Source: Amycolatopsis sp. CA-128772
Lineage (GTDB): Bacteria > Actinomycetota > Actinomycetes > Mycobacteriales > Pseudonocardiaceae
Direction: 5' to 3'
NCBI RefSeq assembly: GCF_002904295.1
Contig: NZ_PPHG01000085.1
Location: 22,047-54,046, forward strand
Length of the DNA: 32,000 nt
The notes below the pieces were generated by a model, which was not told the origin of the DNA, searched no databases, and saw only the letters and a program-made list of their open reading frames with translations. The translations under genes were made by a program, and so were the position numbers. Below, one piece after another: positions 21,917-26,493 of this stretch (the stretch's first letter is position 1; the number at the start of each line of letters is the position of its first letter).

Positions 21917-22882
21917 TCAATCGTGCGGCCGGGGCCCGGCCCCGGCGAGGCGCCGGTTCCGCCGGGCCGGTCCGGCTTCGCGGCCGGTCATGAGCCGCCC
22001 GATCAACGCGGCGCCGACGATCAGGACCCCGCCGGCGACCTGAAGCGGGCCGAGGAGCTCGCCCGCCAGCAGGACCGCGAACAGCGCGGCGAACACCGGT
22101 TCGGTGGACAGGATGATGCCCACCCGCGCGGAACCGCCGATGCGGGCGCTGCGCAGCTGGGCGAAGAAGGCGAAGGACGTCCCGAGCACGCCGAGGTAGC
22201 CGATGAGCAGCCAAGTGGAGCCGGTGAGCTGCCCGATCCGTTCCGGTACGCCGGTTTCGAACGCCGCCGACGCGACGCCGGCGAGCAGGGTCACCACGAC
22301 GAATTCGACGAACGTGATGTTGACCAGCGACTGCGGCCCGCTGCGGGCCGAACCGCGGCCGAAGAGGGTGATCTGGAACCCGCGGATCAGCGCCGCCCCG
22401 AGGATGATCAGGTCGCCGAGCTGGGGCCGGAAGCCGTGGGCGAGCGAGAGCAGCCCGCAGCCGGCGAGGCCGCACAGCGTGGCGACGTAGACGAGCGCGT
22501 GGTAGCGGCGCCGGAAGAGGGCCCACTCGAACAACGGGATCAGCACCACGGACACCGTGATGAGGAAGCCCGCGTTCGCGGCGCTCGTGAACCGGACGCC
22601 GGCCGTTTCGCAGGCCAGGACGCCGAAGAGGAGCGTGCCGAACAGCGCTCCCGACCGGACTTCGTGGGCGGTCAGCGCCCGCAGGGAACGCCGTCCCATC
22701 ACCGCGATGACCGGCAGCGAGCACACGAACCGCAGGGCCAGGAACGCCATCACCGGCAACGAATGGCCGACGATCTGCATGACGACGTAGGTCGAGCCCC
22801 AGATGACCGCGACGAGCACGATGGAGACGTCGCTGATCACCAGGGCGCGCTGATCGGCCACCGGATCGTCGAGCTGCTGCAT
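21917..22882 (-). CDS. EamA/DMT-superfamily transporter (FthC-like putative 4-fluorothreonine exporter)
   Basis: 321 aa taken from ATG 22882 (MQQLDDPVADQRALVISDVSIVLVAVIWGSTYVV...), with GAGGGGGA upstream. It has about 10 TM segments in two EamA-like repeats. The rest of the 694-aa track ORF is an artefact that overlaps the isomerase gene frame. Confidence 0.8.
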   Translation of the reverse strand: MQQLDDPVADQRALVISDVSIVLVAVIWGSTYVVMQIVGHSLPVMAFLALRFVCSLPVIAVMGRRSLRALTAHEVRSGALFGTLLFGVLACETAGVRFTSAANAGFLITVSVVLIPLFEWALFRRRYHALVYVATLCGLAGCGLLSLAHGFRPQLGDLIILGAALIRGFQITLFGRGSARSGPQSLVNITFVEFVVVTLLAGVASAAFETGVPERIGQLTGSTWLLIGYLGVLGTSFAFFAQLRSARIGGSARVGIILSTEPVFAALFAVLLAGELLGPLQVAGGVLIVGAALIGRLMTGREAGPARRNRRLAGAGPRPHD

Positions 22883-22950
22883 CGCGGCCAGTTCCCCCTC
22901 GCGGCTGCGTTCAATATAATTACCAACGTAGCCCACTTCGGTGATCGTGG

Positions 22951-23973
22951 TCAACCGCCGGGCAAGGCGGCGGGCGCGTGGCCGTAGACGCCGTGCTCGG
23001 TGATCACCGCGGAGACGAGCTCGCCGGGAGTCACGTCGAACGCCGGGTTTTCCACCTCGGTGCCCCGCGGGGCCGTCAGCTCCAGGCCGAAGTGGGTGAC
23101 CTCCTCGGCGTACCGGTGCTCGATCGGGATGCCGGCCCCGGACGGGGTGGCCTCGTCGATCGTCGACGTCGGAGCCGCGACGACGAACGGGATCCCGTAG
23201 TGCCGGGCGGCGATGGCGAGGGCGAGCGTGCCCACCTTGTTGGCGGTGTCCCGGTTCGCCGCGATCCGGTCGGCACCGACGATCACGCAGTCGACCGCCC
23301 CGCGGGACATCACGGCGGCCGCGGCCGAATCGACCAGCAGCGCGTGCGGGACCGCCGCGCGGTCCAGCTCCCAGCAGGTCAGCCGGGCACCCTGGAGCAG
23401 CGGGCGGGTTTCGGTGCAGTACACCCGTTCCAGCCGGCCCCGCTCGTGCAGCCGGAGGACCGCGCCCAGTGCCGTCCCGATCCGCAGCGTGGCCAGCCAG
23501 CCCGTGTTGCAGTGGGTCAGCACGCGCAGCCGGTTCCGGTTCGAGGCCGCGCACACGAAATCCGCCGTTGCCGAGGCGAGGGCGGCGTTCGACGCCACGA
23601 TCTCGCCCAGGACCGCGCCGGCTTCCCGTTCGAGGGCGGCCAGGCCGCCGTCGAGCACCGCCAGCATGCGGTCGACCGCCCAGCGGAGGTTGACCGCGGT
23701 CGGGCGCGCCGACGCGATGCGTTCGGCGTCGGCGCGGACACCGGCGGCGTCGAAGGGATCGCGGCGGGCGTGCGCTGACAGCAGCACGCCGAGGGCGCCC
23801 GCCGCGGCGATGCTCGGCGCGCCGCGGATCGCCAGCCGGGAAACGGTCGCGATCAGCTGGTCGACGCGGGTGATCCGGATCCGCCGCTCGTGGTGCGGCA
23901 ACGCGACCTGGTCCACCGCGACGATGCAGCCGTCCTGCCAGTACACGCTCTGTGGTTCCTCGTCGACGGTCAT
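22951..23973 (-). CDS. MtnA-family (methylthioribose-1-phosphate isomerase-like) enzyme; predicted 5-fluoro-5-deoxyribose-1-phosphate isomerase
   Basis: 340 aa from ATG 23973 (GGAGGTG RBS). eIF-2B-like/MtnA motifs are present: IRGAPSIAAAGA, RPTAVNL, THCNTG (catalytic Cys region), TETRPLLQGARLT, VGADRIAANRDTANKVGT, PAFDVTP. Substrate assignment comes from cluster context. Confidence 0.85.
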   Translation of the reverse strand: MTVDEEPQSVYWQDGCIVAVDQVALPHHERRIRITRVDQLIATVSRLAIRGAPSIAAAGALGVLLSAHARRDPFDAAGVRADAERIASARPTAVNLRWAVDRMLAVLDGGLAALEREAGAVLGEIVASNAALASATADFVCAASNRNRLRVLTHCNTGWLATLRIGTALGAVLRLHERGRLERVYCTETRPLLQGARLTCWELDRAAVPHALLVDSAAAAVMSRGAVDCVIVGADRIAANRDTANKVGTLALAIAARHYGIPFVVAAPTSTIDEATPSGAGIPIEHRYAEEVTHFGLELTAPRGTEVENPAFDVTPGELVSAVITEHGVYGHAPAALPGG

Positions 23974-26000: not shown

Positions 26001-26001
26001 C

Positions 26002-26493
26002 TCAGTCCGCGGCCTGGCTGATCCGCTCGAACCGCGGCTGGGCGATGGCGAGGTAGTCGGCCGTGCGCAGGGCGAGCGACCGGTCGAGCCGGGCGGCGTT
26101 GAAGTACAGCTCCTCGATGTCGCGGATGGCGGGGTCCACGATCAGCTGCAGCGCCGGGTCGAAGGAGAACGGCAGGATGGTGCCCGCGACGCAGCCCGAG
26201 AGGCGTTCGGCGGCTTCCGCGTTCGCGAACGAGATGTAGGTCCCGTCGAGCAGGGAACGCACCGCGGCGAGGTCGACCTTGCGGTCCCCGGGCACGACGG
26301 CGAGCACGTAGCGGGTGACCTTCTTGCCCAGCTTGACCATCAGCACCATGCACTTGGCGGCGTGGCCGACCTCGTTGCCCCGCATGGGGCTCACGATGTC
26401 CGTCCGCCCCTCGGCGGGGTGGTCGATCAGGCGGTAGCTCGCGCCGTGCTCGTCGAGCAGCGTGATCAGCTTGTCATAGGTGGTGTTTTCCAC
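26002..26493 (-). CDS. YbaK/ProX-type aminoacyl-tRNA deacylase (FthB-like fluorothreonyl-tRNA editing protein)
   Basis: 163 aa from GTG 26493 (RBS GAGGA about 6 nt upstream): VENTTYDKLITLLDEHGASYRLIDHPAEGRT...GHAAKCMVLMVK...YVLAVVPGDRKVDLAAVRSLL...AERLSGCVAGTILPF. This is the YbaK-like trans-editing domain pattern, including the conserved Lys region. It is convergent with the transaldolase. Confidence 0.8.
   Translation of the reverse strand: MENTTYDKLITLLDEHGASYRLIDHPAEGRTDIVSPMRGNEVGHAAKCMVLMVKLGKKVTRYVLAVVPGDRKVDLAAVRSLLDGTYISFANAEAAERLSGCVAGTILPFSFDPALQLIVDPAIRDIEELYFNAARLDRSLALRTADYLAIAQPRFERISQAAD

Follow-up and report, generated by a model that had tools for sequence, protein, structure and literature searches.

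A bacterial locus that carries the genes for 4-fluorothreonine (4-FT) biosynthesis raises the question of how its host would protect itself against this toxic amino acid. The 32,000-nucleotide stretch of DNA from the soil bacterium Amycolatopsis sp. CA-128772 analysed here, hereafter called the window, is a complete fluorinase cluster and constitutes the fluorometabolite locus of the strain. An earlier note had recognized in it a free-standing tRNA-editing protein and an EamA exporter, and had compared them to FthB and FthC from S. cattleya. According to three reports citing McMurry & Chang 2017 (PMC7408626, PMC7162832, PMC13149037), FthB selectively hydrolyses fluorothreonyl-tRNA(Thr); knocking out fthC causes 4-FT to be retained within S. 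cattleya cells and reduces its secretion by S. cattleya as well as by Streptomyces sp. MA37. Judging from sequence and genomic linkage, the deacylase and EamA genes of the window are probably the counterparts of fthB and fthC in a fluorometabolite cluster, where they would provide the proposed self-protection mechanism.

Organization of the locus

Gene calls were obtained from GC3 frame analysis combined with Pfam, and the curated-model matches come from NCBIfam (Table 1). The proposal that the deacylase and EamA genes bracket the isomerase and transaldolase genes is borne out by both GC3 and Pfam, which place all four genes at the coordinates listed. The deacylase and transaldolase genes are convergent, with stop codons 1 base apart, and the isomerase and EamA genes run in the same direction, the isomerase gene coming first. 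The transaldolase scores 991 bits against the NCBIfam equivalog TIGR04506 "fluorothreonine transaldolase" (cutoff 650) and shares 64% identity with the S. cattleya transaldolase, while the fluorinase aligns to PDB 1RQP in one stretch covering residues 5-297 (E 6.5e-164).

Table 1. Predicted genes of the fluorometabolite locus, in order of position along the window.
Feature	Coordinates	Strand	Evidence and remarks
PNP/MTAP-type phosphorylase (FlB-like)	12705-13661	-	Pfam PNP_UDP_1; TIGR01694 302 bits, cutoff 275
S-adenosylhomocysteine hydrolase (FlI-like)	13797-15272	+	Pfam AdoHcyase E 2.8e-141
Fluorinase (5'-fluoro-5'-deoxyadenosine synthase)	15495-16391	+	298 aa; TIGR04507 594 bits, cutoff 400
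Na+/H+ exchanger (FlH-like)	16392-17819	+	Pfam Na_H_Exchanger E 5e-40
SAM synthetase (MetK)	18086-19273	+	Pfam S-AdoMet_synt N/M/C; GTG start, GGGAGG ribosome-binding site
Phosphoribosyltransferase (PRTase)	19274-19846	+	Pfam Pribosyltran
Two LuxR-type response regulators	19877-20668, 20756-21568	+	Pfam Response_reg + GerE
DUF190 protein (FlJ-like)	21568-21909	+	Pfam DUF190 E 5e-24; ATG at 21568; convergent with EamA gene
FthC-type EamA/DMT exporter	21917-22882	-	321 aa; Pfam EamA, two stretches, 102 bits, E 3.3e-29
MtnA-type isomerase, 5-fluoro-5-deoxyribose-1-phosphate isomerase candidate	22951-23973	-	Pfam IF-2B E 9e-66; TIGR00512 370 bits, cutoff 279
4-Fluorothreonine transaldolase, SHMT + class II aldolase fusion	24141-26000	+	619 aa; Pfam SHMT + Aldolase_II
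FthB-type free-standing aminoacyl-tRNA deacylase (INS/YbaK superfamily, ProXp-ST1-related)	26002-26493	-	163 aa; Pfam tRNA_edit E 4.6e-20
Small conserved ORF	26561-26863, open to 26974	-	GC3 frame signal; upstream of deacylase gene
XRE-HTH + cupin regulator (FlL-like)	26961-27623	+	Pfam HTH_31/HTH_3 + Cupin_2

With respect to the gene starts, the deacylase gene begins with a GTG at 26493 preceded by a GAGGA ribosome-binding site. The NCBI annotation of the EamA gene starts at 22936, 18 codons upstream, yielding a protein of 339 aa (WP_199199434.1, 339/339 identical). The isomerase frame is open up to 24084 (22951-24084), and its start is likely the ATG at 23973, a choice guided by the Amycolatopsis melonis protein, to which 344 aa align. 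The window harbours no tRNA genes, and when 21500-27700 was scanned for repeats that might be shared operators, high-GC background alone emerged.

The deacylase: family, fold and residues

The deacylase shares 70% identity with FthB (P0080) in a gap-free alignment of 157 aa (BLASTP, E 2e-84), and matches Pfam tRNA_edit with 72 bits (cutoff 25.5). Its AF2 model (pLDDT 87) is predicted to adopt the YbaK/ProX (INS) fold, with Foldseek TM values of 0.75-0.80 to 1DBU, 2DXA, 2CX5 and 1WDV. Residue K47 matches the conserved lysine in E. coli YbaK (2DXA) and is invariant across the family alignment; this lysine is the catalytic residue of the INS superfamily. By sequence comparison, the protein belongs to the ProXp-ST1 branch and is not a true YbaK: it shares 42% identity with E. 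coli YeaK/ProXp-ST1 (E 2e-43) and reaches only 46 bits against TIGR00011 YbaK (cutoff 153), FthB being likewise sub-threshold.

Such a relationship also agrees with an ordinary ProXp-ST1-type Ser/Thr-tRNA deacylase, devoid of any selectivity for fluorine and either co-opted or a mere bystander, which would account at most for general editing. The family is large and highly conserved, comprising 3675 proteins at E<=1e-10, with 69 columns that do not vary, whether or not a member is fluoro-associated; the majority of its genes show no linkage to fluorine genes, the window protein is 42% identical to YeaK, and ProXp-ST1 enzymes hydrolyse Thr-tRNAs in vitro (PMC11295145). A point against the reading as an FthB counterpart is that identity to FthB alone is not discriminating within the family at the sequence level, since FthB is closer on average to members found outside fluoro loci (mean 74%) than to the window protein (70%). 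We nevertheless consider an ordinary, unselective deacylase improbable: the linkage to the transaldolase recurs across genera, even in a 33%-GC cluster, the linked copies exhibit skewed residues beside the conserved lysine, and the S. cattleya orthologue is reported to be selective for fluorothreonyl-tRNA (PMC13149037).

The skewed residues define tendencies. Fluoro-linked deacylases mostly possess D/E41, D/E/H44 and R/H143, whereas YeaK and the non-fluoro members possess A41, Q44 and K143; position 44 is occupied by H in the window protein and by E in FthB. The window deacylase groups weakly with the fluoro-associated copies, with which it has in common an acidic residue at position 41 and the lack of both K143 and N126. 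Comparison of positions 41, 44, 126 and 143 revealed no single residue diagnostic for the fluoro-linked proteins, and the replacement of Q44 by D/E/H, considered as a diagnostic signature, was weakened by the retention of Q44 in Actinoallomurus, in Actinopolyspora mzabensis and in the locus L076. No fluoro clade was apparent in an unlabelled NJ tree of the best 120 matches; labelling by genomic context led to a split, with weak bootstrap values of only 30-51% for the fluoro-associated subclade.

The predicted EamA exporter

The EamA protein shares 57% identity over 289 aa with FthC from S. cattleya (BLASTP, E 1e-102). Together with the deacylase alignment and the conserved linkage to the transaldolase, this match upholds the resemblance to FthB and FthC pointed out in the earlier note. 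The FthC-type EamA family is small and sharply bounded: it has about 64 proteins, all at >=43% identity, and the next matches reach <=37%. Its named members come largely from fluorinase hosts.

The EamA protein might instead export another substrate, e.g., threonine/homoserine or fluoroacetate. Functions within the EamA/DMT superfamily are diverse, the NCBIfam matches are all sub-threshold ones, to carboxylate/amino-acid and aromatic amino-acid exporters, and a Xenorhabdus homologue (42-44% identical) occurs with neither deacylase nor transaldolase nearby. Against this, homologues that are at least 50% identical are confined, in every context examined, to loci with a deacylase and/or a transaldolase, and deletion of fthC lowers secreted 4-FT in S. 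cattleya and in MA37 (PMC7408626). Export of another substrate thus appears very improbable, and the protein is better viewed as an FthC counterpart.

Conserved linkage and value for genome mining

The pair adjoins the transaldolase gene in Amycolatopsis melonis, Amycolatopsis sp. H20-H5, N. brasiliensis (two genomes), S. cattleya, Actinoallomurus and two metagenomic clusters (L012 and L014). In Actinopolyspora mzabensis, the pair is located on the fluorinase contig, which probably abuts the transaldolase contig. Since the linkage of deacylase and transaldolase recurs at independent loci (L001-L003, L006, L009, L012, L014, L076 and L097), across genera and including one cluster of 33% GC, the association of the pair with the transaldolase is not due to chance.

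Other neighbours are conserved as well. The XRE-cupin regulator adjoins the pair in loci L001-L003, L006, L014, L055, L097 and L098, and the transaldolase in L004; it would correspond to "FlL5" (PMC9234330 supplement), with which it shares a length of 220 aa. The small ORF (26561-26863) has counterparts in two further Amycolatopsis loci, with identities of 79% and 56%, and the open frame up to 26974 has no Pfam or NCBIfam match. With 137 aa, close to the 139 aa of FlK, it was considered as a possible hot-dog protein and discarded, for it displays neither a domain match nor any similarity to FlK.

A two-part proposal can be drawn from these data, which as a whole we regard as tentative and rather unlikely. 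On the one hand, the derived substitutions flanking the lysine (acidic 41, D/E/H44, and R/H instead of K143) may turn a general Ser/Thr-tRNA deacylase of the ProXp-ST1 type into a fluorine-discriminating one in the fluoro-linked members. On the other hand, and separately, the XRE-cupin, deacylase and EamA trio may represent a portable 4-FT immunity module, occurring without any biosynthetic gene in Microbispora sp. CA-135349, which would then be a case of non-producer resistance.

The suggestion that resistance genes embedded in the core cluster offer a useful handle for genome mining holds in part. The idea is already in print, having been published in 2017, 2022 and 2026 (PMC7408626 and PMC7162832, citing McMurry & Chang 2017; PMC9173684; PMC13149037), and the deacylase taken alone is unspecific: among 27 metagenomic relatives with >=6 kb of context, 26 lack a fluorinase, a transaldolase and an FthC-type EamA in their vicinity. 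The FthC-type EamA, missing from all of the non-fluoro deacylase loci (26/26), is far more specific to fluoro loci than the deacylase. Because deacylases of this kind are common away from fluorine loci, what is informative is the combination of the transaldolase, the FthC-type EamA and the deacylase, often accompanied by the XRE-cupin regulator. The lesson for genome mining is therefore a refinement rather than a discovery. The FthB/FthC pair being already known, the observation is correct and ordinary; if correct for this strain, it merely extends the published self-protection logic to Amycolatopsis sp. CA-128772, whose fluorinase is already characterised and which was included in an earlier published fl-cluster survey.

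Absence of FlK from the window and the question of the end product

The reported lack of an FlK-like thioesterase and of an aldehyde dehydrogenase is confirmed within the window. The GC3-supported ORFs of the 32 kb contain no 4HBT, FlK-like (PF22636) or Aldedh Pfam domain, and the largest unannotated gap is <=467 nt. A tblastn search with FlK, the query being validated as PDB 3KV7_A (139/139), gave a best match of 38 aa at E=0.67 inside a lectin gene, whereas the same query retrieved a true homologue in Actinopolyspora mzabensis (E 3e-38, 48% identity), 1 kb from the transaldolase. Neither FlK nor Aldedh occurs in the available related-locus DNA of Amycolatopsis melonis and Amycolatopsis sp. 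H20-H5, and no Amycolatopsis protein figures among the 120 best FlK homologues, a list reaching down to 56% identity.

From this double absence, the earlier note suggested that the locus is tuned to 4-FT as its end product and that resistance relies chiefly on tRNA proofreading; in its stronger form, the claim is that the strain channels its flux solely or mainly to 4-FT. The intact transaldolase, which passes TIGR04506, accords with such a view, as do the negative searches in the window, in the related loci and in the FlK list. However, the absence of a clustered aldehyde dehydrogenase is the norm and hence uninformative: in N. brasiliensis, the gene corresponding to the aldehyde dehydrogenase of S. 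cattleya (YP_004910482.1) is located at a remote genomic site (PMC3999930), and the accession numbers tabulated in the same paper suggest that the S. cattleya gene itself is unlinked to flA. Fluoroacetate could come from any of the many aldehyde dehydrogenases of actinomycetes. The search covers 32 kb of the genome only, and a distant Amycolatopsis FlK would escape a list of 120 ending at 56%, since a real homologue can be as low as 48% identical.

In addition, FlK and the FthB/FthC pair are not alternatives, since both occur together in Actinopolyspora mzabensis, which has FlK, FthB and FthC in one genome, and in Streptomyces sp. MA37, which has FlK1 along with fthB/fthC (PMC7408626). In N. 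brasiliensis, FthB/FthC are present and flK is missing genome-wide (PMC3999930). A complementary distribution of FlK and the pair among transaldolase loci was also considered and abandoned: the transaldolase contig of Actinopolyspora mzabensis carries FlK without the pair, but a second contig carries the EamA and deacylase genes by the fluorinase. The conclusion on the end product is thus not sustained; that 4-FT is the sole or main product is possible, if doubtful.

Proposed mechanism of self-protection

Under the preferred reading of the pair as counterparts of fthB and fthC, homology would predict the following sequence of events. Fluorinase, PNP and isomerase, together with an unlinked aldolase, would lead to fluoroacetaldehyde, which the transaldolase would combine with threonine to give 4-FT. 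ThrRS would mischarge some tRNA(Thr) with 4-FT, and the free-standing ProXp-ST1-related deacylase would hydrolyse the resulting fluorothreonyl-tRNA(Thr) ahead of the ribosome, while the EamA exporter would lower the 4-FT pool inside the cell. More speculatively, the XRE-cupin regulator, divergent from the small-ORF/deacylase unit and part of the same conserved module, may control it. The literature searched contains no record of 4-FT production by any Amycolatopsis, and N. brasiliensis, which carries the same module, yields no detectable fluorometabolites (PMC3999930).

Comparison with known systems

FthB (SCAT_p0564) and the window deacylase are both 163 aa long, and they share their Pfam domain as well as a pattern of NCBIfam matches below threshold; each is 42-43% identical to E. 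coli ProXp-ST1/YeaK and each is encoded beside a transaldolase gene. They differ in genomic setting: in S. cattleya, the transaldolase gene and the fthB and fthC genes that flank it reside on a megaplasmid, away from the fluorinase gene (PMC7162832), whereas the pair of the window is embedded in the fluorinase cluster. The gene order also differs, fthB and fthC being in tandem in S. cattleya, with fthC following fthB, whereas the window pair brackets the isomerase and transaldolase genes, the EamA gene following the isomerase gene in the same direction. FthC (SCAT_p0565) and the EamA protein of the window, a predicted exporter, have in common two EamA repeats, a small family and the linkage to a transaldolase.

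E. coli ProXp-ST1/YeaK, a general Ser/Thr-tRNA trans-editing factor, shares the fold family and the conserved lysine with the window deacylase; unlike the latter, its gene is not tied to a biosynthetic cluster. FlK (PDB 3KV7) has no resembling sequence in the window, which in this respect resembles the flK-less cluster of N. brasiliensis and differs from MA37, with FlK1, and from Actinopolyspora mzabensis, with an FlK homologue. Finally, the fl clusters of MA37, N. brasiliensis and other actinomycetes (PMC9173684, PMC3999930, PMC7162832) comprise, as does the window, flA, flB, flI, flH, regulators, flIso and flFT together with a ProRS-associated protein and an EamA protein, to which the window adds MetK, the PRTase and the small conserved ORF.

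Gene organization of the fluorinase cluster

Combining third-position GC analysis with Pfam searches resulted in a nearly gap-free gene map of the window (G+C about 72%), in which unannotated stretches do not exceed 467 nt. The gene anatomy proposed in an earlier note for region 21917-26493, i.e., a tRNA-editing protein gene and an EamA exporter gene bracketing the isomerase and transaldolase genes, proved accurate by third-position GC, Pfam and NCBIfam. According to the NCBIfam equivalogs, the SHMT/aldolase fusion is a fluorothreonine transaldolase and the SAM_HAT protein a fluorinase; the latter aligns to the S. 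cattleya fluorinase 1RQP in a single stretch (residues 5-297, E 6.5e-164).

Genes of the fluorinase cluster and their positions in the window
Feature	Position	Strand	Location	Basis
PNP	12705-13661		upstream of four-gene interval	
SAH hydrolase	13797-15272		upstream of four-gene interval	
SAM_HAT protein (fluorinase)	15495-16391		upstream of four-gene interval	TIGR04507, 594 bits vs cutoff 400
Na+/H+ exchanger, PRTase, two LuxR response regulators			upstream of four-gene interval	
MetK (SAM synthetase)	18086-19273		upstream of four-gene interval	
DUF190	21568-21909		upstream of four-gene interval	
EamA/DMT transporter	21917-22882	-	four-gene interval	third-position GC, Pfam
IF-2B/MtnA isomerase	22951-24084 (likely ATG 23973)	-	four-gene interval	third-position GC, Pfam
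SHMT + class II aldolase fusion	24141-26000	+	four-gene interval	third-position GC, Pfam; TIGR04506, 991 bits vs cutoff 650
tRNA_edit domain protein (deacylase)	26002-26493	-	four-gene interval	third-position GC, Pfam
XRE-cupin regulator	26961-27623		downstream of four-gene interval	

Read from NCBI's longer start (22936), the EamA protein is identical over 339/339 residues to WP_199199434.1 of Amycolatopsis sp. CA-128772, encoded on a contig of 67,673 bp. The fluorinase of this strain ('Fam', FlA-CA12) has been expressed and characterised, and the supplement of that report tabulates the flanking fl genes without the transaldolase, isomerase, deacylase and exporter (PMC9234330); the strain was also included in a survey of actinomycete fl clusters (PMC9173684). 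In the species-representative collection, the nearest genome is that of A. melonis NEAU-NG30 (91%, 96% and 88% identity for the transaldolase, deacylase and EamA protein, respectively).

SAM synthetase and phosphoribosyltransferase genes (18086-19846) are embedded within the cluster, an arrangement that has been described as common and as serving SAM supply (PMC9173684). A small ORF on the minus strand (26561-26974), located between the deacylase and XRE-cupin genes, displays a coding-type GC3 signal, has conserved counterparts in A. melonis (79% identity) and in Amycolatopsis sp. H20-H5 (56%), matched no family in Pfam and NCBIfam searches, and is probably co-transcribed with the deacylase gene. 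The divergent promoter region contains, directly before the start of the XRE-cupin gene, an AT-richer stretch (about 26917-26945) with an imperfect palindrome (TTGACGTTCAGCATATTGAACGATCA). It represents a candidate operator and was not detected in the isomerase/transaldolase spacer. The cluster is flanked by a two-domain terpene synthase gene (8051-10543, minus strand; Terpene_syn_C_2, E 1e-109), the architecture of which possibly resembles that of geosmin synthases, and by a gene for a secreted-looking lectin protein with ricin-B and F5/8 type C domains (27649-29301, minus strand). The lectin gene has its high-GC third position in common with a spurious ORF on the opposite strand (28052-28732).

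Correspondence with FthB and FthC

Outside Amycolatopsis, the named protein that best matches the deacylase is P0080 (FthB) of Streptantibioticus (Streptomyces) cattleyicolor, flanked on the S. cattleya megaplasmid by genes for a 634-aa transaldolase and an EamA protein, as the literature describes for fthB/fthC. By BLASTP, the deacylase shares 70% identity with FthB over 157 aa (E 2e-84), the EamA protein 57% with FthC over 289 aa (E 1e-102) and the transaldolase 64% with its S. cattleya counterpart. In a tblastn matrix, both genes of the pair lie a few kb from the transaldolase gene in A. melonis, Amycolatopsis sp. H20-H5, two N. brasiliensis genomes and S. cattleya, and they are likewise close to it in two metagenomic clusters (L012, L014) and in Actinoallomurus (L097). 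In Actinopolyspora mzabensis, the pair stands beside the fluorinase gene on a contig (L096) other than that of the transaldolase (L004); the former ends in a SAH hydrolase gene, the latter begins with one, and they probably join within this gene.

Specificity of the deacylase and of the exporter

With a threshold of E<=1e-10, 3675 proteins matched the deacylase, the best 120 all at least 66% identical, and a metagenome scan yielded 512 relatives. Among the 27 metagenomic loci kept, whose context spans 6 kb or more, fluorinase and transaldolase are present in a single one (L076), and an FthC-type EamA gene occurs in 0 of the other 26; two more loci, one in a Ktedonobacteria MAG and one on a soil contig, are also devoid of fluoro context. 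FthB shares a mean identity of 74% with these non-fluoro proteins, more than the 70% shared with the window protein, and identity to FthB is not diagnostic. Consequently, it is mainly the conserved linkage that underlies the FthB assignment, to which sequence lends modest support.

FthB has been classed as ProXp-ST1-related within the INS superfamily (PMC11295145, PMC12449066). The window deacylase and FthB are both 42-43% identical to E. coli YeaK/ProXp-ST1 and fall far under the true-YbaK equivalog cutoff. The AlphaFold model of the window deacylase (pLDDT 87) adopts the YbaK/ProX fold (TM 0.75-0.80 at 15-21% identity), and no solved structure of the ProXp-ST1/FthB type was found in the structure comparisons. 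In a context-labelled NJ tree, one split (bootstrap 30-51%) groups all nine then-labelled fluoro-linked proteins with two others. In an enlarged set of 11 fluoro-linked and 27 unlinked sequences, several columns are strongly skewed in raw counts that ignore shared ancestry: position 41 is acidic in 10/11 linked and 3/27 unlinked sequences, whereas unlinked sequences favour Lys at 143 (20/27 against 0/11), Asn at 126 (24/27 against 1/11) and Gln at 44 (26/27 against 3/11). Positions 41 and 44 just precede the invariant K47, and E. coli YeaK possesses the unlinked-type residues at 41, 44 and 143. Two non-fluoro relatives adjoin genes for PLP enzymes, namely an aminotransferase/beta-eliminating-lyase-family protein in a Ktedonosporobacter MAG (L013) and a PALP enzyme accompanied by RidA in L089, which hints at a general role of the family tied to Ser/Thr-type metabolism.

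The FthC-type EamA search returned only 122 proteins at E<=1e-10, about 64 of which are at least 43% identical before a fall to 37% or less. The named members largely come from fluorinase hosts, namely S. xinghaiensis, Actinoplanes sp. N902-109, N. brasiliensis, A. mzabensis and S. cattleya. The EamA type is thus far more restricted than the deacylase and serves better as a marker.

FlK and aldehyde dehydrogenase

The earlier note regarded the lack of FlK and aldehyde dehydrogenase as a sign that the locus is tuned to 4-fluorothreonine. Both absences hold for the window: an FlK query identical to PDB 3KV7_A gave a best E of 0.67, and no ORF contains a hot-dog or Aldedh domain by Pfam. As a positive control, the same query retrieved a 48%-identical homologue (E 3e-38) located 1 kb from the transaldolase of A. 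mzabensis DSM 45460 (L004, 8048-8455). However, these absences do not bear the weight placed on them. In N. brasiliensis, a homologue sharing 78% identity with the S. cattleya aldehyde dehydrogenase is encoded at a remote site, accession numbers tabulated in the same report suggest that the S. cattleya gene is also unlinked to flA, and N. brasiliensis possesses no flK homologue anywhere (PMC3999930). Moreover, A. mzabensis combines all three protection genes, so the FlK and FthB/FthC systems are not alternatives. Named FlK homologues occur in S. cattleya, S. xinghaiensis, MA37 (FlK1) and other Streptomyces; none of the best 120 matches, extending down to 56% identity, comes from Amycolatopsis, and a distant homologue could lie below.

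Variant arrangements in related loci

In Microbispora sp. CA-135349 (L098, CP192001.1 1265043-1283984), an XRE-cupin regulator, an FthB-type deacylase (70% identical, with the fluoro-type D41/D44) and an FthC-type EamA protein (55%) are encoded together (about 7193-9942). No transaldolase or fluorinase gene occurs within 9 kb on each side, and the EamA gene is followed, after about 1.6 kb, by an aldehyde dehydrogenase gene; the trio may represent the orphan 4-fluorothreonine immunity module of a non-producer. In the metagenomic fluorinase/transaldolase cluster L014 (JGI 3300086419 Ga0683625_0000007), a gene for a full-length threonyl-tRNA synthetase (3904-5913; TGS, tRNA_SAD, class II core and anticodon domains) directly adjoins the EamA and deacylase genes and could be a third self-resistance device, e.g., a discriminating or extra-editing enzyme. 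Another metagenomic contig (L076, Ga0272440_1007342, 249-6590) carries in a row a fluorinase (66%), an FthB-like deacylase (65%), two unknown ORFs (141 aa; 604 aa with a weak AAA match) and a transaldolase homologue (46%), without any FthC-type EamA gene; its G+C of 33% indicates a non-actinomycete origin. Transaldolase homologues 54-62% identical to that of the window also occur in the DPANN archaeal MAGs L005 (Candidatus Micrarchaeota MAG258) and L007 (Candidatus Woesearchaeota), with no fluorinase, deacylase or EamA gene found in the DNA examined around them. Finally, in Actinoallomurus sp. NBC_01490 (L097, CP109433.1, 7421-13025), the genes for isomerase, EamA protein, XRE-cupin regulator, deacylase and transaldolase form a compact module, and neither a fluorinase nor a PNP gene lies within 9 kb; the fluorothreonine module is thus detached from the fluorinase, as it is in S. 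cattleya.

Comparison with known systems

FthB is reported to counteract fluorothreonyl-tRNA and FthC to export 4-fluorothreonine, with knock-outs in S. cattleya and MA37 (PMC7408626, PMC7162832), and tRNA deacylases were developed as a general genome-mining marker in 2026 (PMC13149037). The observation, the mechanism and the proposed mining use had therefore all been published. Overall, the observation made in the earlier note is confirmed, and its interpretation is partly supported, for the FthB/FthC pair but not for the weight given to the missing FlK and dehydrogenase. As a mining handle, the EamA type is the specific marker, whereas the deacylase type occurs overwhelmingly outside fluorine loci. 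This distinction is a modest addition, as are the XRE-cupin regulator that travels with the pair and the noteworthy variants among related loci.
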